DNA of 56,043 nt from Candidatus Omnitrophota bacterium (GCA_903959815.1 CAJBYM010000022.1:1-56043); one strand, 5' to 3'. Positions 1-39,400 are shown, numbered from the stretch's first letter. Numbers and translations: made by a program. Notes: a model not told the origin generated them from the letters alone.

Positions 1-3000
1 TCACCCACGGCATCACCCAACGTCACAGTCCCTGTATTAAGGAATGTCGTTGTACCCGCGATGCTGTTAACGCCACCCGTGATCGACACGTTGTACGCAC
101 CATTCGCCGCAACGGTCATGCCGGTCGTAACCGTCAGATTATCTGCAAACGCAACCGTGGCTGCATCAGCGGTATCTGTGATCGTCATAGTATTGACATT
201 CACCGTGCTGGAAAACGTAGTGCCCGCACTCTGAGTAATTGTAACCGTACCTATATCTGTTCCGACCGCACCTGACACTGTAACGGCACCCGTCGTATTG
301 ATCACAAGATCAGATACAGCCCCACCCGCCGTCCCCGTAATGGCCGCCAGAGAGATCGGCGTAGCCGCACCAGCACCAACTGTTAAGGTCACCCCATCCA
401 ATAATGCCGCATTCGATAACGTAATAAGACCTGTCGATGTTCCACCCACTGTCGATGAAGCCGCAACATTGAGCGTATTGCCACCGCCCAAGTTAAGAAC
501 GCCGACACCTGCTGCCGTCACCGTAACCCCGCCCAAAATACGGGTCGTTGGAGCTGTTGCGATCAAACCGCCTGTAAAATTGATTGTGTCACCACCATTA
601 CCCAGCGTAAGCGTGCCCGTATTGCTGAACGTCGTCACACCGGCGATCGTGTTCGTACCGCCCGTGAAGGAAACATTGTAATCCTGTACGGCTGTACTCA
701 ATGCCGTTGTAATGGACGTATCCCCCTGGAACGCCACCGTACCGACCGTATCCGTCAATGTGACCGTAGTCGCCGACACAGCCGAAGTAAATGTCGTGGA
801 CAAACTCTGCGTGATGGTGATGGCCAAAGGATCAGACCCACCCACGGCCCCACTCACATTGATCGTACCCGCTGTCCCTGAATTAAGGATCAGCGTTTCC
901 GTAGAATTTCCCGCCGTCCCGTTGATCGAGCCGATCGAAATATTCGCACCGACCGCCGAAACAGTACTCACCGTATACGGCACTCCGCCATTCTCTTCCA
1001 CGACCATGTTCCCGAACGAAATGCTCTTGTCATTATTCGTCACATTGCCCCTGAGATTGACCACGCTGGAGGTCAGGAACGAAAGAGGTGCCGTGATACT
1101 AAGGTTCCCGACATAAACAATACCGGCCGCAGCACTGCCGATATAAAGCGTTCCCGTCGGAATCATATAATTCAACTCGACCTGGGTCAAAGAAAGCGTT
1201 CCCGTCGCTGTATTGACCGCGACAGTATTGCCTGCTGTCAACGGACGAAGCGTAATATTCCCTGCATATAAACTTACACCCAATGTCATGCTATCAGCTG
1301 AAAAGATCACATTGCCCGTTGTCGTAAAGTCATTGCCGCCAGTTATCAATGTACCCAGCGTTTTAAACTCGAAATTTTTCGCACCTTGGGTCAATGCTTC
1401 ATTGGTGCCGATCCAAATACCACCGGTCTGGGTATCGCCGCCAATGATAATGTTCCCGGCTGTAATACCATCCAATTGCGCATCTGTAATGTTCCATGTC
1501 CGCCCTGTATCCCCGACACCAATGGTCGTTGTAATGATAGATGGGGTCAGTGTAACAGTGGCCGCCCCGGCATTGATCGCGCCGTTCATGGTCAAAGTAG
1601 CGCCTTTTAACGTGATCGCATTCCCGTTGGAATTCAAAGCAGCAACGGTAAGACTCCCCCCGTTACCATCAGAATCCGCATTAAGGTACATGGCCCCGGT
1701 AGATGTCACCGTATTTCCCAGATTAATGACATCCTGAGCATCCATCCGCAACGTCCCTGTCGTTGTGATCGTATTTGTCGCAACAATATCACCCGTTCCT
1801 GTTGTTGTTAGCTGGATATTATTAGCGCCGAAACTGACCGCACCATCGGCTCCAAGAAGAATCCCCCCGGTATTCGAAACTGTGCCCAAATAAAGCATAG
1901 TCGTGGCATGCAGGAAATTGAGCTCGTTCTGATCAAGATTGGTCGTACTTCCCCCATTATTCATGATCCCTAAAACCCCGGCTGCCGAATAAGTATCGAT
2001 CGTGATATTATTCGCATTGATAGCTGCGCCGACATTAATACTATCCGTAGAAATAGTCACATTTCCACCTGCGGTGATTCCGGAACCCGCAATCGTCGTG
2101 CCATTAGCGGCTGTAATAGAAACATTCTGGTTGATCGAAAGCTGCCCCGATGCCCCCATACCAAAAGTAGCACCTGCCCCATTAACCGTGAACCCGTTAC
2201 TGTTCGACTGAACCAGTCCATTAATGGTCACATTCCCGGCATTGCCCACATTTTGCAACAAAACACCACCAGGAGCCGTAATATTACCCACCGTAATATT
2301 CGCCCCATTGATCGTTAAAAGACCGGTGCCTGCAAGAATGGAATCACCCGCCTGCATAGAAAAATCACCCGTTGTAATGCCGTCCCAGTTAGCAAGGAAA
2401 GAAACTGTTGTATTATCTGAAAGATTCAGCGATCCCCCTCCCAGGTTATTGATCGTGATCCCATCAACAGCCACAATATAAATGCTCCCGCCTACCAGCG
2501 CTTCAAGCGCGTTCTCCGATATATAATATGTACCCGCGCCCTGGGCACTATTATCAGGTATCGTACCAGCAGGAGCTGACCCACCCGCCCCTGCTTCAAT
2601 GATCACCGTCGTGGGGTCAAGCAAAAGCGTTCCATCGATCCCGTTAGAAGCGGCTGTATCTACAAAACCATAGAATCCAAGATTCTGTTTACCGGAAACT
2701 TCAACAAAACCACCATTCCCCGAAACAGCCCCACCCGTAACACTGATGGTCCCGGCAAAAGATGTCGTGCCATCAGCCCAAAGGATGACCTTGCCGCCAT
2801 TACCTGTCACAAGAGCATTAGCCGTGATCGATGATCCGCTGGACACGAATGTGACCTGGGAATTGAACACGCCCGCATTCTTACCCTGGTAATCGCCGCC
2901 AATGAGTACCGTGCCGCCACCCGCATAACCAGACGCATTGATCTGACTGTTACCCACAAGGGCTGCTGTATTTCCAAGGACCTGAACAGTGCCGCCCGTC

Positions 3001-3845
3001 TGTCCCACCGCGTTACCAGAAACATTGATAGTCCCTGTATTGAGAGCCATACCCTCAGACCCTACAAGACGAATGAGACCGCCTTCGACAACGATCCCGT
3101 TTGCCGGCACAACAGCTTCCGTATTCACGACCTGCTTAACAATATCCGAAACCTGATCTGCGCGAACAATAACACCAGCTCCTGGATTAGCAACTCCGCC
3201 GACCGCAAAGTTAACCAAACCCGCCGCATCAAAACTGAGCGTTCCCTGCGACGTACCCGCAATGGTAACAGAACCTGCCAAAGCCGTAATCGTACCTTCA
3301 TTGATAACCAAAGGCGCGGCCAAAACTACATAACCGTTGACACCTGACGCCGTAATATTTCCCTGATTGATAATATATGATGGAGCAATACCATTTTGAC
3401 TAGAGAACTGATAATTACCTGAAAGAAAATTACTGTTGGACATGTCCAACGTAGAGGCCATAAAACTACCCGTATCCACCACAGACCCCGGGCCAAAGAA
3501 AATGCCATTAGGATTGACCAAAAACACACGGCCATTCGAGAACAAACTGCCCAATATAGAAGAAGGATCCCCGCCAATGATCCTGTTAAGAACCACAGAA
3601 TCCGCCCCTGGCTGATAAAACGTCACCGTTTCAGGCTGGCCAATATTAAAACTGTTATAGTTGATGATCGTATTATCACCTACTGTGATCCCCAGCTGAT
3701 TAGCCTGGGACCAGTCAAAGGTACCATCCCCTTCTACAACCACGCCACCTTCCGGTAATGCATAAGCTGTGTAGTGAAAGAAAGGCGACCCCAAGGTCAG
3801 CGCCAGGACCAGGATAACTGACATTATTTGCTTGAAAGTTCTCAT
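1..3845 (-). CDS. Two-partner-secretion exoprotein (TpsA, filamentous-haemagglutinin/ShlA-like); the C-terminal part runs off the left edge (partial)
   Basis: Absent from the supplied track because its stop lies beyond position 1. ATG at 3845-3843 with AAGGAG 7 nt upstream. My translation gives MRTFKQIMSVILVLALTLG (signal peptide), then VVLNRIIGGDPSSILGSLFSNGRVFLVNPNGIFFGPGS (NPNG motif of the TPS/haemagglutination-activity domain), then GGFVEVSGKQNLGFYGFVDTAASNGIDGTLLLDP. The rest is G/T/N/V/I-rich beta-helix-type repeats. The long P/V/T-rich plus-strand ORFs at 298-2481 are its antisense shadows. It starts 20 nt downstream of tpsB. Confidence 0.85.
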   Translation of the reverse strand, partial: MRTFKQIMSVILVLALTLGSPFFHYTAYALPEGGVVVEGDGTFDWSQANQLGITVGDNTIINYNSFNIGQPETVTFYQPGADSVVLNRIIGGDPSSILGSLFSNGRVFLVNPNGIFFGPGSVVDTGSFMASTLDMSNSNFLSGNYQFSSQNGIAPSYIINQGNITASGVNGYVVLAAPLVINEGTITALAGSVTIAGTSQGTLSFDAAGLVNFAVGGVANPGAGVIVRADQVSDIVKQVVNTEAVVPANGIVVEGGLIRLVGSEGMALNTGTINVSGNAVGQTGGTVQVLGNTAALVGNSQINASGYAGGGTVLIGGDYQGKNAGVFNSQVTFVSSGSSITANALVTGNGGKVILWADGTTSFAGTISVTGGAVSGNGGFVEVSGKQNLGFYGFVDTAASNGIDGTLLLDPTTVIIEAGAGGSAPAGTIPDNSAQGAGTYYISENALEALVGGSIYIVAVDGITINNLGGGSLNLSDNTTVSFLANWDGITTGDFSMQAGDSILAGTGLLTINGANITVGNITAPGGVLLQNVGNAGNVTINGLVQSNSNGFTVNGAGATFGMGASGQLSINQNVSITAANGTTIAGSGITAGGNVTISTDSINVGAAINANNITIDTYSAAGVLGIMNNGGSTTNLDQNELNFLHATTMLYLGTVSNTGGILLGADGAVSFGANNIQLTTTGTGDIVATNTITTTGTLRMDAQDVINLGNTVTSTGAMYLNADSDGNGGSLTVAALNSNGNAITLKGATLTMNGAINAGAATVTLTPSIITTTIGVGDTGRTWNITDAQLDGITAGNIIIGGDTQTGGIWIGTNEALTQGAKNFEFKTLGTLITGGNDFTTTGNVIFSADSMTLGVSLYAGNITLRPLTAGNTVAVNTATGTLSLTQVELNYMIPTGTLYIGSAAAGIVYVGNLSITAPLSFLTSSVVNLRGNVTNNDKSISFGNMVVEENGGVPYTVSTVSAVGANISIGSINGTAGNSTETLILNSGTAGTINVSGAVGGSDPLAITITQSLSTTFTSAVSATTVTLTDTVGTVAFQGDTSITTALSTAVQDYNVSFTGGTNTIAGVTTFSNTGTLTLGNGGDTINFTGGLIATAPTTRILGGVTVTAAGVGVLNLGGGNTLNVAASSTVGGTSTGLITLSNAALLDGVTLTVGAGAATPISLAAITGTAGGAVSDLVINTTGAVTVSGAVGTDIGTVTITQSAGTTFSSTVNVNTMTITDTADAATVAFADNLTVTTGMTVAANGAYNVSITGGVNSIAGTTTFLNTGTVTLGDAVG

Positions 3846-3865
3846 CGCGGATCTCCTTTATAAAA

Positions 3866-5584
3866 TTAAAACTTTTTAGAAACCTGCAAATATGTCACAA
3901 CCTTATCCCCGGTAGACGACTTGTCTCCGGCCACAGGAAGACCAAAATCAAGCTTGACGTTCAGGTCCCTGCCAAAATCAAATCTAAACCCAAAACCCGC
4001 ACCTGCAATATCAGAATGTTTACGCTCTCCGACCTGAGGCTTCTTTAAGTAAACTTTGCCATAATCATAAAAACCGACGATCCTCATGAAATCCTTGATC
4101 TCTTTCTTCACGAACGGAACTTTATAATCACCCAAAAACGGGACCGGAATATTCAACTCCGCGTTGAAGACCTCACCCGTATCACCCAAGTGTTCTGCCT
4201 GTGCGTACCCGCGAACTGTATCCGCGCCACCAATAGCGATCTGCTCAGAAACCGGTAAAGAATTATTTGCAGCCTGGACAGATCCTTTGAGCATCAACAT
4301 ACTGTTAAGCGGTAATTTTTGATAACGGGCAAACTCCAAATTACTCTTAATGAAGTTCCCGCCGACGCCCACACGCGACATGCCCAGATCATCATGCTTC
4401 GACCCGCCCATAAAATTCGAAAGGGCCTGGGAAGCGCTAAGAGCAAAATAATTCCTGCCCATAAAACGCGTATCTAAATTATTGCCTGTTAACCCGAGCT
4501 TAACGATCCTCAACTTATCTTCACTGCTAACGCTGCCCAAAAGATAATTCGTCGCCGTCTTATAATCAAAGCCAAGCGAAACATCCAAAGCTGATGTCAG
4601 AGTTCTTTGCAAAGGCTGCGCCACCAAAAAACTGATCATTTCTGAATCACCACGCGCGTTAAGCCGGCGAAATTCTCTTTGCACATCAAACTTTGACTTT
4701 GTATACGAAACCCCGACCTTAGTATCATACGCATTGATCGGCGTAGAATACCCAACACTCCCATACGTCAAAGCATTTAAAGAGATACCCGACACCCCAT
4801 TTAACGTAACCTTATCACCACCTAAAAACAAATTAGAATACTCCATTCCCAGGCCAAAATGTTCCCTGGAAACATAACGGGAACCATAATTGTCATAATT
4901 CGCCGTGAAATGCAAAGGACGCTTATCTTCAACTTTCAAGAGCACATCAACGGTGTAAGGCTCTTTACCCTTTTGCATAACCGCTTTTACACTAAGATCA
5001 GGATATTCGTTAAGAAGAATGAGCGCTTTAAAAAGACGGTGGTAATTAACAACACCGTTTGCGGAACAGGCGAAATGACCTTTAATAAAATTCGCTGTGT
5101 AAAATTTGCCGCCCTCAATGACCACTTCACCCAATTTCCCTTCAACAACAACAATATTAACCACGCCATTAGCAATATCTTGGGCCGGAAGAATGGCGCG
5201 CGTCAAAAAGAAACCCTTCTCTATATAATATTCATTGATCAAACGAAGGGCATCCTGCAGATCTTTGAAATGAACGGGCTTATGCACATACTTGGCCACA
5301 ACCTTCTTAAGCACAGAACTTTTAAAGATTGTATTGCCCGTAAATTCAAATGCACTGACCGTAATCTCTTTACCTTCATCTAAAAGAAGATCAGTCTTGG
5401 GATAATCCAATTCTTGAAAGATGTTCCTTTTTTCTGTTGTGGCTGGAATTGCTTCGGGCTGGGTAAGACTTCTTTCAACAACACCTGACTTTGCGCTGCC
5501 AGGGACTTCTTGTGCTAAAGCTAATGTTGTTATTGAGAACGCACAAAAGATCGCTACGAACAGAACTTTTGGTTTAAAGCCCAT
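3866..5584 (-). CDS. TpsB outer-membrane transporter (ShlB/FhaC/HecB family, POTRA + beta-barrel)
   Basis: 572-aa ORF with ATG at 5584 and a GGAGGT SD. Signal peptide MGFKPKVLFVAIFCAFSITTLALA. POTRA-type segment FEFTGNTIFKSSVLKKVVAKYVHKPVHFKDLQDALRLINEYYIEKGFFLTRAILPAQDIANGVVNIVVVEGKLGEVVIEG is typical of ShlB-type transporters. The C-terminus is beta-strand-like and ends in F. It lies immediately upstream of tpsA. Confidence 0.85.
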   Translation of the reverse strand: MGFKPKVLFVAIFCAFSITTLALAQEVPGSAKSGVVERSLTQPEAIPATTEKRNIFQELDYPKTDLLLDEGKEITVSAFEFTGNTIFKSSVLKKVVAKYVHKPVHFKDLQDALRLINEYYIEKGFFLTRAILPAQDIANGVVNIVVVEGKLGEVVIEGGKFYTANFIKGHFACSANGVVNYHRLFKALILLNEYPDLSVKAVMQKGKEPYTVDVLLKVEDKRPLHFTANYDNYGSRYVSREHFGLGMEYSNLFLGGDKVTLNGVSGISLNALTYGSVGYSTPINAYDTKVGVSYTKSKFDVQREFRRLNARGDSEMISFLVAQPLQRTLTSALDVSLGFDYKTATNYLLGSVSSEDKLRIVKLGLTGNNLDTRFMGRNYFALSASQALSNFMGGSKHDDLGMSRVGVGGNFIKSNLEFARYQKLPLNSMLMLKGSVQAANNSLPVSEQIAIGGADTVRGYAQAEHLGDTGEVFNAELNIPVPFLGDYKVPFVKKEIKDFMRIVGFYDYGKVYLKKPQVGERKHSDIAGAGFGFRFDFGRDLNVKLDFGLPVAGDKSSTGDKVVTYLQVSKKF

Positions 5585-6419: not shown

Positions 6420-6887
6420 TCACTTCTTTCTTTTCTTCTTAAAGAACTCGCTCATCACGGCACCGCATTCGTCTTTAAGCAATCCCCCTTCGATCTCGAC
6501 CTGATGGTTCAAGATCTTGTTCCCAGGGATATTGATAACAGACCCGCACGCCCCTGTCTTGGGCGCTTTAGCACCGAAAAATACTTTTTTCAAACGCGCC
6601 AAAACCAAAGCTCCAGCGCACATCGAACAAGGCTCGATTGTAACATACATGACACAATCCTGCAACCACTTGGAAGCAAGAAAATTCGAGGCCTGGGTGA
6701 TCGCGATCATCTCCGCATGGGCGGTAGGATCTTTAAGAAGCTCGACTTGATCATACGCACGGCCGATGACCTGCGTACCATGAACAATAACCGCCCCTAC
6801 CGGCACTTCATCTCTGGAAATGGCCAAACGGGCCTGCTTTAAGGCCTCGCGCATCATGGCTTCATGAAATGTGTAGTCTGGGAGCAT
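6420..6887 (-). CDS. tadA: tRNA-specific adenosine-34 deaminase
   Basis: CMP/dCMP-type zinc deaminase motifs HAEMIAI and PCSMCAGAL, with EVPVGAVIV near the N-terminus. The track ORF extends to 6932; I prefer the ATG at 6887 (MLPDYTFHEAMMREAL...), but the start is uncertain. Confidence 0.85.
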   Translation of the reverse strand: MLPDYTFHEAMMREALKQARLAISRDEVPVGAVIVHGTQVIGRAYDQVELLKDPTAHAEMIAITQASNFLASKWLQDCVMYVTIEPCSMCAGALVLARLKKVFFGAKAPKTGACGSVINIPGNKILNHQVEIEGGLLKDECGAVMSEFFKKKRKK

Positions 6888-7012
6888 ATAAAGTAAAATG
6901 TCCGCCCTACAGAATAATGCAAGACGGACCAATTAAAACACCAGAGGCTCGGGCGACTGTTAGTCGCCAACGCAGCCTCGGAAGTATTTTTTCAAGAATC
7001 CTTGAAAAAATA

Positions 7013-7245: not shown

Positions 7246-8628
7246 TTAGAGCTTCTCGACATCCTTAAGAAGCTGCTTGCGATTAAGCCCGATGCGATTC
7301 ATGGCATCAGAAGAATCCAAACGGTACGCCCGGCAAAATGTGGTCACATCCTTGAGCGTATGAATACCACGGCTGTGAAGCTGTTTTAAGACAATAGCGC
7401 GCACGATCGTTTCGTTAATGATCTCACGCGGCGTCAACCCCGCCTCACGGGCCAATCTGTCACGGTAGATCGTGCTGGGCGACATCATGATCACGCGATT
7501 CTGCTCATAATTATACTTGTAAACCGGCGAAAGCAGGATCTTCTTCTGCTCCATCCCGCCTGTTTCACTGACTTCATCGACGACACGAAAAACCTTGTCT
7601 TCAATATGGAATCTTTTTAAAACAACGAACACATCAATAAGATTCACCAGCATCTCGGGAATATTCATCGGATCATTCTGAAGACGAATGATCGCCTCAC
7701 GCGACGTAAGGGCATGGATCGTACATATGCAATACTTACCCACATTCATGGCCGTGATCATATCACGCGCCTCAATGCCACGGACTTCACCGATGACAAT
7801 ACGCTCCGGGCGCATGCGCAAGCTATTTTTCACCAGATCAGCCAGCGAAAGCTCATCATCACTTTCCAAACGAGACACCGTATCCAACAAAAAGGTATTA
7901 AGCTCCAGCGTATCTTCAATGATAACCGTATGATCTTTTTCAGGAAAGAAACTAAAAAGAGCATTCAAAAGAGTTGTCTTCCCTGTTCCAGGACCACCCG
8001 CTAACATAATATTCGCAGGGCGAATGGACAACCCATCCACATAAACCCATAGCTGGGCCGCCACTTCATACGTCATACTACCACGGGCTACAAGATCCAA
8101 AATGCTAATAGGGTCAACCTTGGCCTTGGTGATCGTGATCTGAGCTCCGAAAGGCGATGTGATGATATTCGCACGTCCACCCAGATTGGAAAGCTCAAGG
8201 TCAATGATGCGGTTCATGCTGTCACGATTGGAGAAAACCAGAAGCTTCTTGATAAAGATATCGAGTTCGCGAATATGCTCAAATCTCTTGCCCGTATCAA
8301 CAAAGCCCTTCTCGCTGTGATGAATAAAAATAGGCTGCAACCCGTGGATCACAATATCTTCTACATCGCTGTCACACAAAAGCCCTTCGATGACACCATA
8401 AGAAAGAAATTCCCTGACAAAACTGGCCTTGCTCTCAGGCTTAGGAAATTCACTGTCAAAACGACGTGCCTTGTCATTGGCCAAGACGCTTTCCAAAGCA
8501 GCTGCAGCGATCTCCTCACGGTCATGGTCAGGTTGCAAGACCTGTAAACGACCTTTAAGCTTATCGAGCAGCTGATCTTCAAGTTCTAAACGGATATTTT
8601 TATTCATAACTGTAGGATAATTTAACAC
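7246..8628 (-). CDS. Type II/IV secretion-system family ATPase (CpaF/TadA/FlaI-like hexameric ATPase)
   Basis: Walker A GGPGTGKTTLLNAL, Walker B/Asp box TVIIEDTLEL, and ERIVIGEVRGIEARDMITAMNVG...CTIHA (His box). The track start at 8628 is GTG and an ATG lies at 8607; neither has a clear SD. Confidence 0.75.
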   Translation of the reverse strand: MLNYPTVMNKNIRLELEDQLLDKLKGRLQVLQPDHDREEIAAAALESVLANDKARRFDSEFPKPESKASFVREFLSYGVIEGLLCDSDVEDIVIHGLQPIFIHHSEKGFVDTGKRFEHIRELDIFIKKLLVFSNRDSMNRIIDLELSNLGGRANIITSPFGAQITITKAKVDPISILDLVARGSMTYEVAAQLWVYVDGLSIRPANIMLAGGPGTGKTTLLNALFSFFPEKDHTVIIEDTLELNTFLLDTVSRLESDDELSLADLVKNSLRMRPERIVIGEVRGIEARDMITAMNVGKYCICTIHALTSREAIIRLQNDPMNIPEMLVNLIDVFVVLKRFHIEDKVFRVVDEVSETGGMEQKKILLSPVYKYNYEQNRVIMMSPSTIYRDRLAREAGLTPREIINETIVRAIVLKQLHSRGIHTLKDVTTFCRAYRLDSSDAMNRIGLNRKQLLKDVEKL

Positions 8629-12967: not shown

Positions 12968-15766
12968 TCAATTCATGGCCGCTTCCTGCAAGAACGGCAA
13001 ACCTTCGAGCGACATGACAGAAATGATCTCGGGTGAAAATCCTTCTACGGCCTCAGGCGACATCTTCATGCCTTGCAAACCAAACTCTTGCCGTTGCCCC
13101 TTAAGGTCAAATGCACCATTAACATTCCGAACATCAATACCTCCTGTGATCTCAGACTTGTCGAATTCCCTCAAAACCTTAAGAACCAAACCCGTCGGCA
13201 ACTGATTCGCCGCTTGAACAATATCGCACATATAAATATAAGGTATCAAATATTTGTTCAAAGGTGAATTCTTGTCCCCGCCTTTATAATATTTGTGCTC
13301 CCAGTCATGCAAAAAAGCCTCGGTGGACTTAAACTGAACCTCTATGGTCCAAGCCCCATGGCCCAACATAAAAATAACATGCACGCCGTTATACCATTTA
13401 GGAGTTGATGTCTTTTTCTTTCTTTCCAAACTATAATAATTGATAACCCTGGCAACAATAGGCGCGTTGTTCTTAAAATTCTTTTTAATATCCTCGATTC
13501 GGGCCAAATCTCTTTGCAGTCGACCCTTTTCTTCCTGTTCTTCATCCGATAAACTTTCTCCAACAAGTCGTGCCAACTTCTTATTGATCTTTTGTTCAGC
13601 CGCTTGAAAATCACTCCAAAACTGCTTCAAAAATATGACCTGCTTCTTGGGATCAAGAAGGTCCTGCAATGACTTGAATAAATCCCTGGGATTATCATAA
13701 ATAAAACGCAGACCCAAGTAATCATAACCTTCCCTAGGATCAGGTGCCGGCTTTCCACTCCGCTGTGTATTAGAAAACTTCGCATTTAAACTCTCGGCAC
13801 CTTTGGGCCGACCCGCAATGATCTGCGGCTTTGTCCCCATAAGATCCTTCAAGCTTCTTGAAAAGTCATCGGATTTCTTTTGAAAAAGAACCTTGGATTC
13901 TTTGGCTATATTTATAGTCCATTGTTTCAACGAAACATTCGTAGGCACAATAAACTGCCCATCATTAGAGCGGCTATCGTTAATAATACCTGTATCATCC
14001 ATTTCATTGATCTGAGGAAATTTATTCAAATACTCAATTTCTTTCATTAACCGCAGAAAAAGCTCCTTATACTCTGCATCTGTCTTAAATTTCTTGACAA
14101 CAGAAGCCATTCTCGGGATCAACTCCGGATGAAGTTTTAGAATATACTCCCCCAGGATCTCTTGATAAGGAACGTCTTCATCTTTCGTACGCGACATCAT
14201 GGCCAAACCCCGCAAAATATCAAAGGTTTCCTGCGTGCGCGTACCACTCAGGATCTGTTTCTTTAATGCCGATTCTTCTTCGGGCTCATCCATAACATCA
14301 CCTGATGTTTCTGGACGCTTATCCAAAATATCTGCCAATGCTTTAACTAGGAGCTGCTTATGTTCTTCCCCATCCAAATAAAGGTCAAAAGCACCCTTAA
14401 CCTCCTTGACCATTCTTTCCTTATTGGCCTGAAGCAACGACCACTCACGGGATCCATAACTAAACTTTTTCTCCTCATCCTCAAAAATAATAAACGCAAG
14501 TTCCTTGATACTTTCCATCATCAATGCCATTCTTTCTTTACCTGGAAAATTATCACGTTTTATATCCGCAACAAACTCTGAAGGTGGTGCAAACTTATTC
14601 ACCTGCGGGTCAGGACCTCGCAAATCACCTTTTAGCTCAACATATTTCTTCTTCTTTCGCCCCTGCTTTTCTGAAGCATCCATAGAAGAACGCACCTTGA
14701 ACGTCTTCTCGGAGAAATCTTTGCCTATGCCGGTCGTAAACCCACCGGAAAGATATTTGCGCGGGATCGTCTCGCCGCTATAACGGTCAACTTCTTCTTT
14801 AATATAATTAAAAACCCCTTGGCGAAAGGCCTGAACATACTGATTGTAGATGCGCTGATTCTCAGCCACATCAGCCTGCTCTATACCTTTGACCTTACCC
14901 TGATCAACATAAGCCTTACCCAAAAAAGTCTCATGCATCGCCTTTTTATACCAAGTCGCAAGAATAAGCGCATTGTAAATCTGACGCAAGCGAGCGAAAT
15001 TCTTACCCTGATTCACTTCTTTCTCAAGAGCAGGAATGATGATCTGTCGCATCATGGACTTCGTTAATTCTTGCGTAGGGGCCGACCTTGTGTCGGCCCG
15101 TTCATGAGCTACAACATTATTGTCCATCGCGAGATAATCTGATTCCAGCATGACCTTCAGATGCGCTTTTAGGACCATGGCGCTCGTACCCTGCTGATAT
15201 ACCTCGGCAACATCAGGCATGATCCAGACTTTATTGAATGTATCCACCGGAATATCTGTAGTACCAAATTGATCCTGCGCCTGACGATAAACTTCTGCCC
15301 AGAAATCCTTACCAATCCCCTCTTCAGGATAAATGAGCGATGCCGTGATCTGTTTGAGCATATAATCCTGCGCCAAAAGATCACGCCCCATTTCCGTCAA
15401 GCCGAAACGATCATCAATGATGCGGTCTTTTTCATACGGAGAAAGGTTAACCCACAGCTGGTCTTCAGGAATCGTGAGAGAAACCATAAAATCTTTAACG
15501 AGCAGTAAATATTCATCTTTCCGGGCATCTCCTTGCGGCATCTGCCCCGGATCGACAAAAAACTGGAACTGCAAAGGATTTTCAGGATCAACGGTCAAGG
15601 CACTTAAGAGAGCTGGTTCAAAAGATGCGCTTAAAGCAACTTTATCTCCAGCAGGAGGCAGAAGAACAGCCTGGGCATGAACATACGCAGACGGAAAAGC
15701 TAATGCCAAAGCAAGGGCTCCGGCAATGAACCGCTTTAATATATTATTGTAAATACTGCAAATCAT
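12968..15766 (-). CDS. 932-aa signal-peptide protein: conserved N-terminal module, RelA/SpoT-type synthetase-like domain, conserved C-terminal module (paralogue of the 3,175-aa ORF)
   Basis: ATG at 15766. Signal peptide FIAGALALALAFPSAYVHA. Residues 32-345 align with the N-terminus of ORF 36406-45933. Residues ~645-830 carry GRPKGAESLNAK, DYLGLRFIY, WYNGVHVIF and IEVQFKSTEAFLHDWEHKYYKG in the RSH synthetase motif order. The last ~60 aa, GGIDVRNVNGAFDLKG...GFSPEIISVMSLEGLPFL, are shared with the giant ORF. Confidence 0.8.
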   Translation of the reverse strand: MICSIYNNILKRFIAGALALALAFPSAYVHAQAVLLPPAGDKVALSASFEPALLSALTVDPENPLQFQFFVDPGQMPQGDARKDEYLLLVKDFMVSLTIPEDQLWVNLSPYEKDRIIDDRFGLTEMGRDLLAQDYMLKQITASLIYPEEGIGKDFWAEVYRQAQDQFGTTDIPVDTFNKVWIMPDVAEVYQQGTSAMVLKAHLKVMLESDYLAMDNNVVAHERADTRSAPTQELTKSMMRQIIIPALEKEVNQGKNFARLRQIYNALILATWYKKAMHETFLGKAYVDQGKVKGIEQADVAENQRIYNQYVQAFRQGVFNYIKEEVDRYSGETIPRKYLSGGFTTGIGKDFSEKTFKVRSSMDASEKQGRKKKKYVELKGDLRGPDPQVNKFAPPSEFVADIKRDNFPGKERMALMMESIKELAFIIFEDEEKKFSYGSREWSLLQANKERMVKEVKGAFDLYLDGEEHKQLLVKALADILDKRPETSGDVMDEPEEESALKKQILSGTRTQETFDILRGLAMMSRTKDEDVPYQEILGEYILKLHPELIPRMASVVKKFKTDAEYKELFLRLMKEIEYLNKFPQINEMDDTGIINDSRSNDGQFIVPTNVSLKQWTINIAKESKVLFQKKSDDFSRSLKDLMGTKPQIIAGRPKGAESLNAKFSNTQRSGKPAPDPREGYDYLGLRFIYDNPRDLFKSLQDLLDPKKQVIFLKQFWSDFQAAEQKINKKLARLVGESLSDEEQEEKGRLQRDLARIEDIKKNFKNNAPIVARVINYYSLERKKKTSTPKWYNGVHVIFMLGHGAWTIEVQFKSTEAFLHDWEHKYYKGGDKNSPLNKYLIPYIYMCDIVQAANQLPTGLVLKVLREFDKSEITGGIDVRNVNGAFDLKGQRQEFGLQGMKMSPEAVEGFSPEIISVMSLEGLPFLQEAAMN

Positions 15767-19112: not shown

Positions 19113-19811
19113 TCAATATTTTCGAACACAACGAATATGCGCAAAAAGATCTGTCTTGCCCGTAGTGCCCTGACTGGCATTAGAGAAATACTGATACTCG
19201 GCGCCATAACCGCTCGTCTCCGTTGACGACCAGTAATAATACGTTGAAAACCCTTTGATCGCGTCCTTGTTGTTATAAAGGACATCGTTAACTTCTTTCT
19301 TGGCAGGTAGATACCAGTCGTTATACCCGCTATAAACCATATCCTGACAATATTTAGCCGCGTCCGTATCCGTATAAAAAGGAGACAGGGTTGTCAATTT
19401 ATTAGTGTTAAAAACGCCATCGGTCTCACTTGCCGCGCCTGTAACGACATTGTAAGCCGTTGTCCCTGAATTGTTGGCCCATTTCAATATTACAGTATCA
19501 TTATTAGCACCACCCGCACAAGTCGGATGGGTCAGATCCGCACCCGCGCACCCTCCGGGTGTGACCATATATTTATCCGTTGGAACAAGGTTCGCATAAT
19601 TCGTACCTCCATACAACGCCAGCGTACCATCGCACGCCTGTCCTATGGATTTCCCCGCGCAAGGATCAGTCACCAACGACGGAACAGCAATCTGCGCGCT
19701 GGATATCCTCGCGCCTGAAATGAAGGCCGCTTGTGCCGCATATGAAGCATCCATACATGCGAATAAAAAAAAAGGAAGAACAATAAATATCCGGCAAGTT
19801 TTAATAGCCAT
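19113..19811 (-). CDS. Secreted Cys-rich protein with DUF1566/Lcl-like C-terminal domain
   Basis: Signal peptide IFIVLPFFLFACMDASYA. The C-terminal YCQDMVYSGYNDWYLPAKKEVNDVLYNN...YYWSSTE...IRCVRKY resembles the DUF1566 fold family (from memory). It overlaps the pilD stop by 11 nt. Confidence 0.6.
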   Translation of the reverse strand: MAIKTCRIFIVLPFFLFACMDASYAAQAAFISGARISSAQIAVPSLVTDPCAGKSIGQACDGTLALYGGTNYANLVPTDKYMVTPGGCAGADLTHPTCAGGANNDTVILKWANNSGTTAYNVVTGAASETDGVFNTNKLTTLSPFYTDTDAAKYCQDMVYSGYNDWYLPAKKEVNDVLYNNKDAIKGFSTYYYWSSTETSGYGAEYQYFSNASQGTTGKTDLFAHIRCVRKY

Positions 19812-21003
19812 ACATCCCCATGACCCATCGGATGATCATATCACCCCAAAAAAGACTGGCAACAATACCGACAGCAAGAAATGGTCCGTAAGCAATCGCT
19901 GTATCCTGTCGACGTAAAACCTTGATCAGACCAAACACCGCTCCAATAAAAGGCGCAATAAAGAATGCCACCAGAGCCAACTGCCACCCTAAAAACGCAC
20001 CCGCCATGGCCAAGAATTTCACATCCCCCCAGCCCATGACCCCGCCCTGATCCACATCCTGCAGCATCGCAAAGATCTCCTGACGCTTATCCTCAAACAC
20101 AGGTTCAAGCTTTAGGCCTGCGGCCGTCTTCACATCACGCAACGCCGATTGAAGGCTCCCCTGAGCATCCACATAACCTGCCCCATGAAGGGCTTTCATC
20201 AGCGCCAAAGGATCATCCACCATACCTTTAAAATCAAATTCCGTCACAACACGTTTGGTGATCAAGACCTCTCCGATAAGCCCCGTGACCCAAAGGGAGC
20301 ACGCACCGATCACGGCACCCTGTAAAGCATCAGCAAGCGCCGCAAAAGACGTCGCGCAAGACGGGATGACACCTGCCAATGTCATCAATGACCATTGCAA
20401 TAACAAAAATGCCGTCCCCAAAAGAAGGATCTTCTTGTCTTCTCCATCAACGGGGATCTTAAAGCGAAATAACTTGAGCAGATGAAGCCCCATGCATGTG
20501 CCACCCAGAATAAAAGCGACCATGCTACCGACGATCAGCACTTCAGATGCCGGACCTTTATGAAGAGCAGGAATGAGCATGCTCAATAAGAAACCGACCC
20601 ACATCCCGCCCACACTAACCTCATCCGGAATGATACGCCACTCAAGATCCACAAACGATGCCACAACCAGAAGGCCGATGAGCACAAAAGCTGGAACCAA
20701 CACCCAGGAAAAACCAAACACGATATACGCAAAGAAGAATAAAGCCGCTGTTAAAAGTTCAACCACGAAATAATGCAACGGTATGCCTTTTTGACACGAG
20801 CGGCACCTGGCTTTTAGGGCCAAGAAACTGATCAAAGGAATGTTGTCATACCAATAGATCGGCGCCTGACACTGCGGGCAATGCGACGATGGAAAAACGA
20901 TCGATTCACTCTTGGGAAGACGGACAATGCACACATTAAGGAAACTGCCGATCAAAGCACCGAAAACAAAAAAGATAGTCCGCAAGAAGATCTCTATTTC
21001 CAT
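19801..21003 (-). CDS. pilD: Prepilin (type IV leader) peptidase, A24 family, with a large internal insertion
   Basis: N-terminal zinc knuckle CPQCQ...CRSCQ. First Asp region SFVDLEWRIIPDE and second Asp motif GWGDVKFLAMAGAFLG. 400 aa, compared with the usual ~250-290. Confidence 0.8.
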   Translation of the reverse strand: MEIEIFLRTIFFVFGALIGSFLNVCIVRLPKSESIVFPSSHCPQCQAPIYWYDNIPLISFLALKARCRSCQKGIPLHYFVVELLTAALFFFAYIVFGFSWVLVPAFVLIGLLVVASFVDLEWRIIPDEVSVGGMWVGFLLSMLIPALHKGPASEVLIVGSMVAFILGGTCMGLHLLKLFRFKIPVDGEDKKILLLGTAFLLLQWSLMTLAGVIPSCATSFAALADALQGAVIGACSLWVTGLIGEVLITKRVVTEFDFKGMVDDPLALMKALHGAGYVDAQGSLQSALRDVKTAAGLKLEPVFEDKRQEIFAMLQDVDQGGVMGWGDVKFLAMAGAFLGWQLALVAFFIAPFIGAVFGLIKVLRRQDTAIAYGPFLAVGIVASLFWGDMIIRWVMGMYGY

Positions 21004-36405: not shown

Positions 36406-39400
36406 CTACGGCAAGAGGAACAAACCGGGGTCCTCAAGCGGCTGGAAAGCTGTTATCCTGAAATCAAAACCCCGGAAAAGCTGAAGGAATTGCTGTGAAC
36501 TCTCGGGAGAGAAAATCTGAAGGCCAATATCGACAGGGGTAAGGATGCCCTTAAAATCAACGATGTCGGATACACCTGTAAGGTCAAGCCCGCCATTCTC
36601 CGGTAAGGCAGCGCTGTCAGGCTCTTCAGGCGCAGCAACCTCCTCGGATTTATCCAGCCCCGCCTGTTTCAGTTGCAAGCTGATATCCTCCATTTGATCC
36701 CGGAATTTGATATGCTCAACCTTGGCCGAACTATAGTTCGGCAGAATAGCGCCGGCTTCAATATCACCCCTGAAATCCTTTCTCGCTTCAAGAAAAAGAT
36801 CATAATACAACAAATACCGTTTGCGCGCCGCGTTCTGCTCATCGATCAGTTCCTTATGATCGAAACCGTTGTGCTCATAAACATCCGGCTGTGAGATCCT
36901 TTTCTCAAGATACGCCTTCAACAGCCGGTCCTCGGGCAATATCAAAGGATTGATGATATCATTAGTCATGTGCAAAAGCGGCAAACTGTTCCAAAGATCC
37001 GGATCCTGCTCAAGTTTATCAAGGACTTTCCCCAGGATGCTGACAGTCTTCGCGTTAAAGAACATGAGGCCGCTAAGCGCGGGGAACTGTTTCAATTTCT
37101 TACGCTTCAGATCAAAACGTGTATTCAGATAAATCAGCTCGTGATCGACGTACATCGGCTCACGGCCTTTGCGTTCAATATCAGAAACGATCATCTTCTC
37201 ATGGATCTCTGCAACGGCATTGGTCTGACCATCGGGGTCCATCTTCAGAAGACCAAGCGTCTCAAGCTCCTTTTCATTCACCCAGTCGGCCTGAACATTG
37301 ATATCCTTATCCGCCGTGAATTCTAGCATGGGACCGAAATACGCGTCGCGGCTGTAAACAGTGATCTGCCCGCCCTTCGAAAAAGGATCGTCCTTCTTCA
37401 GCTTGGCCGCCAAACGGTAACCGTTGATCAAAGCCCAGTCAAGGACCCTGTTGTCATGGAACTTATTCATACCATGAAAAACAAACATGGCCCGGACATC
37501 CTGCCACGGCTTACCGCGCAAGTGCGGATACCGGGCCAAAAAATCCGGGTCCTTCAGTTTTGTGCGCATGAACTGCAAGGCGCGCAGTTCGACATTGCCG
37601 CTCCCTTTTGCGCTCGGAGCAATTACCATCGGCACACTATCCCTGGTCATCACTCCCCTGCTGATATCCACATATTTATTAACCTCATCGACATAATCCA
37701 AATCTTCCGGGATAACGATGACCATGTCCACGCTGGGCGCCCCGCTGCCATTCACTTGTTCATTCAACGCAGCCTTGCCTTCGTCGACGGACCGCTTGAC
37801 CACTTTGTCCATCCCTTTGGCGCCATTGCCATTGGACGTCAAAGGATCACCATTCTTTTTATCAAAATTTTCATCAAGTTTATTATTGATAGCCTTCATA
37901 TCCTTGAGCCATTCCGGATGCGTGATGACATACTGCGCCCACCAGAACGACCCAAACTTGGCAATAGCCCCCAGAATAGTCATCACGATCAACCCATTGC
38001 CGAGCAAGGGCAGTCCGAGAAAACGGGCAAAGAATCCCAGCCCCAAAAATATCGGGGGGGCATAGAGGAAAAGACGGCCCCTCCACCTGCGCCACAGATC
38101 CGCCCGGGCCGCTGCAGCCGATGTCAGAGAATGCAGGGTCTCGGCTTCCGCTATCATATCCTCCAATATCTTTTTGCTCCTGCCCAGAAGATCTTCATCC
38201 TCGTTATAAATCCCCGGCATTAATTTGTTGCCCTTTATTCTGATCTCGGGGATGAGCTCATAGATCCTCTTGGTGGAAATGCCGATCTGATCGGTATATT
38301 TGATCCCATAACGCATAAAAGGATACACTTTGCTCTTTTCGATAAAATGATCATCCGACCCCTTATATCCCATCAGCTTGTCAACAGAGCCCCGGCTTTC
38401 AAAAAGTTCCAGGTAGTCTTCGAGGTACGTTTGCATGTCAAGCAAACGTGCCTTATCGTCAAAAAGCATTTCCGTCTGACGACTATCAAATCCTGAGTGG
38501 CTGTCCTGATAATGGTCAAGGGCATTGCGCAATTCGGTGATCGACAGATAAAGATGAAAGAACGTTTTCATGTACTTGCCGTTACGGATCTCGCCATCCT
38601 CCGACCCCCTGCCCATGAGCTCCGGCACGTAAGGCATGGAACGGATGACATGGTCATACTGGTTCAAGGCTTCATTAATGTCATGGATAACCCCTTGCGG
38701 ATCAACCCCCTCATCTTCGTTCCAGCTCTTAACAATATTTTGCACCTTGACCAGGCGCTTGCGCGCCGAATTATTGAAACCGTCCTCAGGAATGATCGTG
38801 AATGTCAGGCCAGCCGATGTGCCCAGAGCGCCGGGGATCAGGAACATTCTGGCAACCTTTTCTTTCCAGCTGGTTGTTTTGCGCTTGACGCGAATAACGT
38901 CCTTGCGCAAAGACACGACAAGGTCGTCAACCTTGCCATATTTTCTGAAAAATTTCTTCTGAACAAAGCCATGAGCAATGAAGGCCCCGGCCGCAAATAG
39001 CGCCCAAAAAGCGTACCAGATCGACGAAGGAGTGTTCGAGACATTCTGATCATTCTTCAAAATAGACTCTTCAAGGCTCTTCATTTTCTTTTCGATCTCT
39101 CTTTTCAGGGACTTCTGGGTCGAATTGACCGGATTGAAATCCTCGAAATGGGTGATGATCTTCATTGGATCGGTCTCACCGGCGATCTTGAGTCTCATAT
39201 CTTTAATGAGAGCCGTCTCTGCGGTCCCGAATTTGCTGTTGTTCCAGAAATCCAGTTGCGGGGTGTACTCGATGCGCGACTCGACCAAATCAAGGGCTAT
39301 GCCGATCGCCATGGCCTTGATCTGGGCCTTGACCATGTCCGCCCCGTTGGGACGGGGATCCGTGGCCGCATGCAATTCGCCGAAGGTAAAAGTCTTTAAA

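Follow-up and report, generated by a model that had tools for sequence, protein, structure and literature searches.

A divergent RelA/SpoT-homolog synthetase domain within a modular, putatively exported protein family of Candidatus Omnitrophota

RelA/SpoT homolog (RSH) synthetases that carry export signals are already a described class. Ahmad et al. (mBio 2025; PMC12691689) predicted approximately 600 exported alarmone synthetases (EAS), 252 of them with Sec signal peptides, in a set defined by two jackhmmer iterations from Apk1. The Sec-type members come from Streptomyces, Vibrio, and Shewanella, are encoded at isolated loci without immunity genes, and are toxic only with the signal peptide removed; EAS products are (p)ppGpp and/or (p)ppApp (PMC12691689). 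The export features found in that survey are the Sec signal peptide, WXG/LXG, XopAD, MuF, DUF4157, and Rhs/PAAR, and neither Omnitrophota nor a carrier comparable to the one presented below is mentioned (PMC12691689). For SaEAS, which has a low Km for ATP, an extracellular role is favored, and VpEAS/RelV is harmless when periplasmic (PMC12691689). Here, we analyze an RSH-domain protein of 932 amino acids (aa) encoded at positions 12968 to 15766 (minus strand; ATG start, TGA stop) of a 56,043-nucleotide stretch of DNA from a Candidatus Omnitrophota bacterium (GCA_903959815.1 CAJBYM010000022.1:1-56043). This whole stretch is referred to as the window, and all positions are counted from its start. 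With moderate confidence, we read this protein as a Sec-exported, catalytically competent RSH pyrophosphokinase borne as a cargo on an Omnitrophota carrier and acting outside the producer's cytoplasm, probably on the nucleotides of a host or prey.

Omnitrophota are reported to be ultra-small and host-dependent or predatory (PMC10066038; PMC12583861). The phylum is also the source of giant proteins termed Archaeovorins (West-Roberts et al. 2023 bioRxiv; 2026 complete-genome preprint), which reach at least 10 to 30 kaa (thousand amino acids) and have many transmembrane helices and arrays of multiple enzymes; the papers describe N-terminal regions without identifiable domains and cytoplasmic-type enzyme domains behind signal or transmembrane segments. 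Our literature search found no publication describing the carrier or its N-terminal module (N-module), and none joining Omnitrophota with ppGpp. A preliminary description of the gene, made from the window sequence, had named only Tas1 and the toxic small alarmone synthetases (toxSAS) as examples of exported or weaponized RSH enzymes and had proposed a delivery context not previously described. The first of these statements is superseded by the Sec-exported EAS; of the second, the carrier indeed appears undescribed, but a Sec-exported RSH enzyme without an immunity gene is already known (PMC12691689).

The RSH synthetase (pyrophosphokinase) domain spans residues ~601 to 870 (13157-13966, minus strand, as for every feature of this protein) and is supported by profile searches, Pfam matches of homologs, AlphaFold2, and Foldseek. 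It contains, in canonical order and at the residues and nucleotides first reported for them, the four synthetase motifs claimed by the preliminary description. Syn1 (GRPKGAESLNAK, residues 652 to 663; R653, K655, S659, and K663; 13778-13813) and Syn2 (DYLGLRFIY, residues 682 to 690; D682 and R687; 13697-13723) were placed by homolog alignment, and Syn3 (WYNGVHVIF, residues 791 to 799; Y792 and H796; 13370-13396) by homolog alignment and a direct Protein Data Bank (PDB) sequence match. Alignment and profile together locate Syn4/Syn5 (IEVQFKSTEAFLHDWEHKYYKG, comprising IEVQFKST...EHKYYKG, residues 808 to 829; E809, Q811, K813, E823, H824, and Y827; 13280-13345). The ordered patterns R-x-K-x3-S-x3-K, D-x2-G-x-R, Y-x3-H, E-x-Q-x-[RK]-[ST], and E-H-x2-Y-K are thus all present. 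We take Y792, the Syn3 tyrosine, to be the guanine-stacking residue of RSH structures.

Read without homologs, these motifs would be suggestive but unproven. A homolog search identified full-length relatives of 883 to 957 aa with 37 to 46% overall identity, several of which have a precomputed PF04607 (RelA_SpoT) match. Across the full-length alignment, R653, K655, K663, D682, E809, and H824 are invariant, and conservation is at least 90% at S659, R687, Y792, H796, Q811, K813, E823, and Y827. For the RSH region on its own, identity across nine homologs falls to 20 to 27%, and 12 residues (R653, K655, K663, D682, R687, Y792, H796, E809, Q811, K813, E823, and H824) remain invariant in all of them. 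Because these motif residues are retained despite such divergence, the active site appears to be under purifying selection, and the conservation that the initial assignment called for is present.

Profile and structure searches place the domain among RSH synthetases. PF04607 matches 8 of 10 full-length homologs (best E = 5e-12); the window protein has no relevant match in Pfam or NCBIfam, and PF04607 is absent even at E ≤ 10. Its best direct PDB sequence match is a weak one to FaRel2 (E = 0.19, residues 786 to 840). A full-length family profile retrieves RelP at 1.8e-5, and a profile of the RSH region only retrieves RelP (6fgk, 1e-8), RelQ (7e-7), RelA (5e-5), Rel (7e-5), FaRel2 (3e-4), and CapRel (0.035) but neither SaEAS (8vx3) nor Tas1/Apk1 at E ≤ 1. 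Word-indexed homolog searches with the RSH region or the RSH-only alignment returned nothing, not even the source proteins, which reflects a limit of sensitivity and is not evidence. In the AlphaFold2 model of the whole protein, the predicted local distance difference test (pLDDT) score is ~80 over residues 410 to 870, and the motifs lie on strands 649 to 654, 684 to 690, 770 to 776, 795 to 800, and 807 to 814 of a mixed beta-sheet with helices on its flanks, the fold expected of a synthetase domain. The top 28 Foldseek matches in PDB are all RSH synthetases (probability, 0.75 to 1.0), led by RelP 6fgj (E = 1e-3; probability, 1.0; TM score, 0.57 on the target); RelP/RelQ structures match with probability 1.0 and TM scores of 0.45 to 0.57, CapRel and FaRel2 with probabilities of 0.97 to 1.0, and the exported SaEAS of Streptomyces albidoflavus (8vx3) weakly (E = 0.15). 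The check proposed at the outset, by RelA_SpoT model or by predicted fold, is therefore answered by the fold and by homologs rather than by a Pfam match of the window protein itself, and the toxSAS-like affinity suggested with it is not borne out, since RelP and RelQ rank above FaRel2, CapRel, and SaEAS in the RSH-only profile search. Together, these results identify a bona fide but divergent RSH synthetase domain with an intact set of active-site motifs, which is apparently catalytically competent.

Two further elements accompany the domain. A helical-hairpin insertion of ~60 aa lies between Syn2 and Syn3 (helices 717 to 734 and 741 to 762; 13472-13654), as indicated by alignment and AlphaFold2, and the HMMER alignment of the RSH-only profile to RelP breaks into two stretches around it. 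Upstream, residues 407 to 600 (13967-14548) form a helical region (helix pLDDT, ~80 to 88) without a Pfam match that is conserved among RSH-bearing homologs only (G508, Y510, T511, and L545).

As the preliminary description had proposed, conserved modules at the N and C termini flank the RSH domain. These modules define the carrier family of the present analysis, for which we found no published name. The N-module comprises residues 32 to 345 (WVNLSPYE ... GRDLLxQDYxLKQ ... IPRKYxSGG; 14732-15673), as judged by alignment, hidden Markov model (HMM), and AlphaFold2; it matches the family HMM with E = 5e-156, and residues ~30 to 345 are 50 to 57% identical to thousands of proteins of 580 to 1600 aa from Omnitrophota metagenome bins. 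A low-confidence, K-rich linker follows (residues 346 to 406; 14549-14731; pLDDT, <40), and the C-module closes the protein (residues 871 to 932, ~62 aa; GGIDVRNV ... EGFSPEIISV ... GLPFLQ; 12971-13156; HMM E = 2e-14, 53 bits). The family search yielded at least 3874 proteins at E ≤ 0.001 (3874 of 8000 scored candidates). The window N-module is 47 to 80% identical to those of 78 family members, with 42 invariant columns in the 79-sequence alignment.

The architecture of the family is very regular: a signal-like N terminus, the N-module, a variable middle, and the C-module. WVNLSPYE falls near residue 105 and IPRKYFSGG near residue 340, and the C-module has the consensus GGIDLNaaNLnLQIKRDGkGVPLP...GFvPvIieIkPv, in which the GG-I-D motif is 100% conserved at 55 to 75 aa from the C terminus (103 members). 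The window protein has the signal-like N terminus, the N-module, and a C-module with GGID...GFxPxI that characterize the family. AlphaFold2 models the N-module with confidence (pLDDT, 84.9; predicted TM score, 0.81) as a mixed alpha/beta domain with nine helices and a long beta-hairpin (residues 180 to 207). It has no Pfam or NCBIfam match, and Foldseek returns nothing at E ≤ 0.001 from PDB (best E = 0.13; TM score, 0.12) or from BFVD (best E = 0.16).

Several more familiar identities were considered for these modules and rejected. The ClyA-family pore-forming toxins NheA, SmhA, and MakE and colicin Ia recur as weak N-module matches, with TM scores of ~0.12 and probabilities of at most 0.08. 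The N-module is not a two-partner secretion (TPS) domain: it has no TPS match and a mixed alpha/beta model, whereas a real TpsA encoded in the window matches PF05860. The C-module lacks the terminal hydrophobic helix and basic tail of an exosortase-, sortase-, or rhombosortase-type signal, does not fit the GGxGxD nonapeptide of RTX (repeats-in-toxin) proteins, and at ~62 aa is far too short for an autotransporter barrel. The most conserved N-module stretch, residues 100 to 124 (WVNLSPYEKDRI), contains a W-V-N-L-S-P string that is invariant in 118 sequences. It is modeled as a loop with confidence below that of its surroundings, which is more in keeping with a loop for partner recognition or catalysis than with a structural core.

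We surveyed N-module loci in one genome per GTDB species and found at least 593 in these species-representative genomes; the analysis that follows concerns the best 80. All 80 lie in Omnitrophota metagenome-assembled genomes (MAGs), and we regard the family as specific to this phylum. Individual MAGs hold several of these loci, in some cases at least three of the best 80, so the family is multicopy per genome. Across these loci, we found no conserved partner gene (the commonest neighbor family occurs at 6 of 80) and no recurring dedicated secretion operon. Two N-module open reading frames (ORFs) lie within ±5 kb at 10 of the 80 loci (L004 to L083), and the complete proteins with both modules (n = 53) measure 627 to 2056 aa, with a median of 1191. 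Many of the MAG records (loci L004, L009, L011, L014, L016, and others) are titled "uncultured Planctomycetales bacterium," probably a depositor's label at odds with the gene content.

The protein begins with a signal-peptide-like N terminus (residues 1 to 31, MICSIYNNILKRFIAGALALALAFPSAYVHA followed by QA; 15674-15766), which reads MICSIYNNILKR-FIAGALALALAF-PSAYVHA↓QA and is conserved in homologs. It consists of a positive n-region (K11 and R12), a hydrophobic core of 12 to 13 residues, a helix-breaking proline, and a V-H-A↓Q-A sequence with V at −3 and A at −1, from which the cleavage site is predicted. This is the sole hydrophobic segment of the protein, and AlphaFold2 places a helix at residues 2 to 23 followed by coil. 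The window's TpsB, OmpA-LysM, and Lcl_C proteins have N termini of the same "...YAQ/LAQ" style as this protein. Applied to 36 window genes, an export rule combining n-region charge, h-region, and −3/−1 residues flags TpsB, OmpA-LysM, an M16 peptidase, the Lcl_C protein, and both N-module proteins of the window (the RSH protein and a 3175-aa ORF), along with one unknown ORF and two Pst permeases; among ~22 cytoplasmic enzymes, it gives one false positive. The same N-terminal design is found in nearly all of ~110 complete family N termini, including that of the 3175-aa ORF. The Sec-type signal peptide claimed for this protein is consistent with all three parts of the rule, which groups it with envelope proteins, and Sec export is accordingly well supported, although not proven.

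Cargo regions were surveyed with precomputed and direct Pfam scans of family proteins, and most have no Pfam match. Those that do include CheY receivers, HATPase, NUDIX, starch synthase, DnaJ with peptidase M3, EPSP-synthase/MurA-like enzymes, PrmA, LysM, proline dehydrogenase, UDP-glucose pyrophosphorylase, PP2C, and phosphoglycerate mutase. The regions between the modules are also punctuated by a short motif, D-x-A-M, which occurs 196 times in 99 N-/C-module proteins (P0012 to P0120) against 11.9 expected, an enrichment of ~16-fold. Nearly all copies (181 of 196) lie between the N- and C-modules, often within 60 aa after the N-module or within 40 aa before GGID, and in multicargo members they recur every 100 to 250 aa. 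D-x-A-M looks like an inter-module boundary or a processing motif. The window protein and its close homologs contain only D-x-A-Q/E/S variants and no D-x-A-M: a degenerate MDAS lies in the K-rich linker (residues 372 to 375; 14642-14653), and the second site lies at D869-K870 (13157-13162). The 3175-aa ORF contains no D-x-A-M.

The RSH cargo is much rarer than its carrier. An exhaustive HMMER search of 1.84 billion cluster representatives with the RSH-only profile gave 849 matches at E ≤ 1e-3, 35 at 1e-10, and 10 at 1e-30, and every match better than 1e-20 was an N-/C-module protein or a fragment bearing a C-module. One further N-module protein (P0139) bears a more distant RSH domain. This RSH lineage is thus confined to the carrier family and is sporadic. 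Since close matches are few and carrier members number in the thousands, the RSH domain is an accessory cargo rather than a universal housekeeping enzyme, and its rarity and confinement to the carrier argue against a housekeeping role in the stringent response. Within the same proteins, the carrier is 54 to 80% identical and the RSH cargo 20 to 27% identical; by analogy, a fast-evolving cargo on a conserved carrier is typical of modular effector families.

The locus is isolated. A Shine-Dalgarno-like, AAGG-containing stretch lies 5 to 11 nucleotides 5′ of the ATG; dprA is upstream across an AT-rich gap of 96 nucleotides, and a convergent OmpA-LysM gene lies 67 nucleotides downstream. These neighbors, and the absence of an adjacent small antitoxin- or immunity-like ORF, agree with the preliminary description: no small ORF fits in either gap, and the ORF listing contains none beside the gene. 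The published Sec-type EAS are likewise found at isolated loci without a co-operonic immunity gene. Shikimate kinase, fructose-bisphosphate aldolase, and M16 peptidase genes are further neighbors, and the remainder of the window is mostly housekeeping. A promoter and terminator scan gave site counts at the level of shuffled sequence. Two homologs elsewhere lie in unrelated housekeeping contexts, so the neighborhood is not conserved, and neither has an antitoxin or immunity gene beside it. No dedicated secretion operon was found at the RSH gene, and PADLOC defense models gave no consistent match among 10 homologs. The absence of partner genes and the unconserved neighborhood match the published pattern of EAS.

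In the mechanism that we favor, the N-terminal signal would take the unfolded protein across the inner membrane, signal peptidase I would cut after A31, and the enzyme would thereby be denied access to the ATP/GTP pool of its producer, an argument already made for SaEAS and VpEAS. Shielding of that pool by export would explain why an immunity gene is missing. The N- and C-modules would supply a step common to the family, which may be outer-membrane passage, surface retention, or entry into another cell. The RSH domain would then transfer pyrophosphate from ATP to the 3′-OH of an acceptor, probably in the cytoplasm of a host or prey cell or among contents leaked from it, because host-dependent or predatory lifestyles are reported in the phylum. 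The most likely product would be (p)ppGpp and/or (p)ppApp, with depletion of purine nucleotides and arrest of the target.

Several observations weigh against this interpretation. CheY, HATPase, NUDIX, starch synthase, EPSP-synthase-like, and PrmA cargos normally need cytoplasmic partners and would be odd passengers on an exported protein. The export call comes from a rule-based reading of the N terminus, and no secretion system, target-entry mechanism, or processing site was identified for the RSH protein. The modeled N-module matches no known fold in PDB or BFVD, and the C-module is not confidently modeled by AlphaFold2 (pLDDT, <35). The RSH domain of the window protein has diverged beyond the reach of Pfam and could have altered activity, and its sequence affinity is nearer to the housekeeping enzymes RelP and RelQ than to FaRel2, CapRel, or SaEAS.

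The strongest competing explanation, which we nevertheless consider unlikely, is that the protein is exported to serve its producer, making extracellular or periplasmic alarmones from scavenged nucleotides for signaling or nutrient sensing, as proposed for SaEAS. The EAS work, with an extracellular role favored for SaEAS and periplasmic VpEAS/RelV harmless, speaks for such a function, as does the lack of delivery machinery linked to the RSH gene. Extracellular signaling is, however, hard to square with a carrier that also bears many ATP- or partner-dependent cargos; the conservation of its modules in thousands of paralogs suggests a common trafficking step, and the lifestyles of Omnitrophota are host or prey associated.

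A slightly poorer case can be made for an exported toxSAS-like enzyme that pyrophosphorylates tRNA, or another non-nucleotide acceptor, and blocks translation in the target rather than making alarmones. FaRel2 is the best direct PDB sequence match, the Foldseek probabilities for CapRel and FaRel2 are high, and the domain has K in place of R in E-x-Q-x-R-T, the long insertion, and a family-specific helical N-terminal extension. This possibility is improbable in light of the profile and fold searches, in which RelP/RelQ and the long enzymes Rel and RelA outrank FaRel2 and CapRel, and of the invariance of Y792, given the guanine-stacking role assumed for it above.

We assign still less weight to the idea that the protein is not exported and that its N terminus is an uncleaved anchor tethering a cytoplasmic small alarmone synthetase to the membrane for the cell's own stringent response. 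The domain is closest to housekeeping RelP/RelQ, the family's cargos are cytoplasmic-type domains, and placement on the cytoplasmic face is considered in the 2026 Omnitrophota preprint for giants that have transmembrane segments only; we also found no other RSH gene in 0.8 Mb of Omnitrophota DNA, a sample so small as to be uninformative. Set against these points, the hydrophobic core is just 12 to 13 residues long and is followed by proline and the V-H-A↓Q site, the positive charges N-terminal of the core would leave the body of the protein outside (positive-inside rule), and the RSH lineage, unlike a housekeeping gene, is rare relative to the carrier family and to Omnitrophota diversity. It is very improbable that a structural surface protein retains the RSH domain as a degenerate, inactive relic: the failure of Pfam on the window protein and the low identity in the RSH region would fit such a view, but the 12 invariant catalytic and substrate-binding residues point to purifying selection. 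Signal geometry, rarity of the cargo lineage, and an invariant active site are thus the grounds on which we disfavor both the tethered synthetase and the relic. Finally, a type II toxSAS toxin-antitoxin or CapRel-like antiphage module, to which the RSH fold and weak FaRel2 and CapRel similarity might point, is largely refuted by the absence of an adjacent small ORF or fused antitoxin domain, by the 932-aa multidomain architecture with a predicted signal peptide, and by the lack of a consistent PADLOC match in 10 homologs and the unconserved housekeeping neighborhoods.

The window encodes a second member of the carrier family. The 3175-aa ORF (36406-45933, minus strand) has a signal-like N terminus and an N-module at residues 43 to 364 (44842-45807, minus strand) that is 39% identical to that of the RSH protein (E = 2e-74; HMM E = 9e-115). 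Scanned across the window, the module HMMs identify these two N-modules and one clear C-module. The 3175-aa ORF has GGLDL at the equivalent distance from its C terminus, where the C-module HMM scores 8 bits, which is not significant window-wide; of the earlier claim that both modules are shared with this giant ORF, the N-module part therefore holds and the C-module part is weak. It also has one further hydrophobic stretch near residues 2627 to 2661 and marginal Pfam matches only (OEP, 7e-5; HlyD_D23, 1.6e-4), and it is flanked by the housekeeping operons rpsB-tsf-pyrH-frr and phoU-pstBAC. This ORF is apparently a midsized, multicargo member linking the carrier family to the giant proteins of Omnitrophota.

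Other genes of the window concern secretion more generally. A two-partner secretion pair occupies 3-5584 (minus strand) and consists of TpsB (3866-5584; POTRA_2 and ShlB; PF03865) and TpsA (3-3857; at least 1285 aa, running off the left window edge), whose TPS domain matches PF05860 with E = 1e-22. The pair is unrelated to the N-module family but shows that the organism encodes large exoproteins of the classical kind as well. Within 7 kb of the RSH gene are an ATPase of the type II secretion/type IV pilus kind (T2SSE; 7246-8628), a signal-peptide-bearing Lcl_C-domain protein (19113-19811), and a prepilin peptidase (19801-21003), all on the minus strand; these are generic pilus or secretion components with no established link to the family. 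A 170-aa ORF (6420-6932, minus strand) matches MafB19-like deaminase (2e-44) and the dCMP/cytidine deaminase family (3e-28) and is most likely, from these matches, not a toxin but a tRNA adenosine deaminase of the TadA type.

The RSH gene would bring into the EAS class a candidate phylum whose bacteria are ultra-small and host-dependent or predatory, and its structurally novel export context would be the seventh, after the six of the 2025 survey. It also exposes a very large and apparently unannotated Omnitrophota family, and this carrier family is the more novel lead: its constant modules enclose cytoplasmic-type enzyme domains of the same puzzling sort as fill the Omnitrophota giants. A broader proposal, which we put forward as possible but doubtful, is that N-/C-module proteins are substrates of an undescribed, phylum-wide effector-delivery scheme that brings interchangeable, cytoplasmic-type enzyme cargos from these ultra-small cells into or onto a host or prey. 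If so, the carrier would consist of a signal peptide, an N-module of novel fold, linkers punctuated by D-x-A-M, and a GGID C-module; its cargos would include the RSH pyrophosphokinase, NUDIX and receiver domains, starch synthase, and MurA-like enzymes; the giant Archaeovorin-type proteins would be multicargo versions of the same design; and the RSH protein would offer a small and tractable case of the manipulation or killing of partners by Omnitrophota. Unlike giants of 30 to 150 kaa, a member of 932 aa with one cargo, whose enzyme is easy to assay, lends itself to expression and mutagenesis, and it could show where carrier proteins go and what the carrier does.

Compared with known systems, the carrier family belongs to the same phylum as the Archaeovorins and has overlapping cargos (starch synthase PF08323, receiver PF00072, HATPase PF02518, NUDIX, and methyltransferases). 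The window protein itself is no giant, with 932 aa, a single recognizable enzyme cargo, and no transmembrane helix beyond the putative signal peptide, and the Archaeovorin papers describe no N-/C-module family and no RSH cargo. CdiA/TpsA, Rhs, and MARTX proteins and the oomycete CRN effectors likewise combine a signal peptide, a conserved trafficking region, and a swappable enzymatic cargo, a likeness that is a functional analogy only and not homology. The carrier family instead places its cargo between two constant modules and has no TPS domain, RTX repeats, or Rhs/PAAR domains; the window protein in particular has no TPS match, and the TpsB of the window lies next to the real TpsA. Module boundaries in CdiA and CRN are marked by the motifs VENN and HVLVxxP, respectively, to which D-x-A-M is comparable.

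Among RSH enzymes, RelP (small alarmone synthetase 2; 6fgj, 6ewz, and 6fgk) and RelQ (small alarmone synthetase 1; 5ded) are the best profile and structural matches and have all Syn motifs in common with the window protein. They differ from it in being cytoplasmic, homotetrameric proteins of ~210 aa without a signal peptide or extra modules; the window protein has the ~60-aa Syn2-Syn3 insertion, which has no equivalent of such length in small alarmone synthetases, and K in place of the R of E-x-Q-x-R-T found in RelP/RelQ. The toxSAS and type VI secretion RSH toxins (FaRel2, CapRel, and Tas1/Apk1) resemble the window protein in their RSH fold and in the notion of such an enzyme directed against another cell or a phage. 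In contrast to them, the window protein is not accompanied by an antitoxin or immunity gene and carries none of the known delivery domains, such as PAAR/Rhs or MuF; with 932 aa and a predicted signal peptide, it also differs from toxSAS and CapRel, which are small cytoplasmic proteins with an adjacent or fused antitoxin.

The Sec-type EAS are the closest parallel. Like SaEAS (8vx3) and VpEAS/RelV, the window protein has a synthetase domain behind a Sec-type signal, here a predicted one, encoded at an isolated locus without an immunity gene, and in both cases export is the presumed means of self-protection. The Sec-type EAS are essentially single-domain proteins of ~250 aa, whereas the window protein has 932 aa with an N-module, a helical region, an insertion in the synthetase domain, and a C-module; its family falls outside the Apk1/SaEAS clusters in sequence (no retrieval at E ≤ 1), and its phylum lies outside the EAS survey and its carrier outside the six EAS export features. 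An exported RSH enzyme without immunity is therefore an already known kind, and what is new here is the phylum, the multidomain architecture, and the carrier shared among many cargos.

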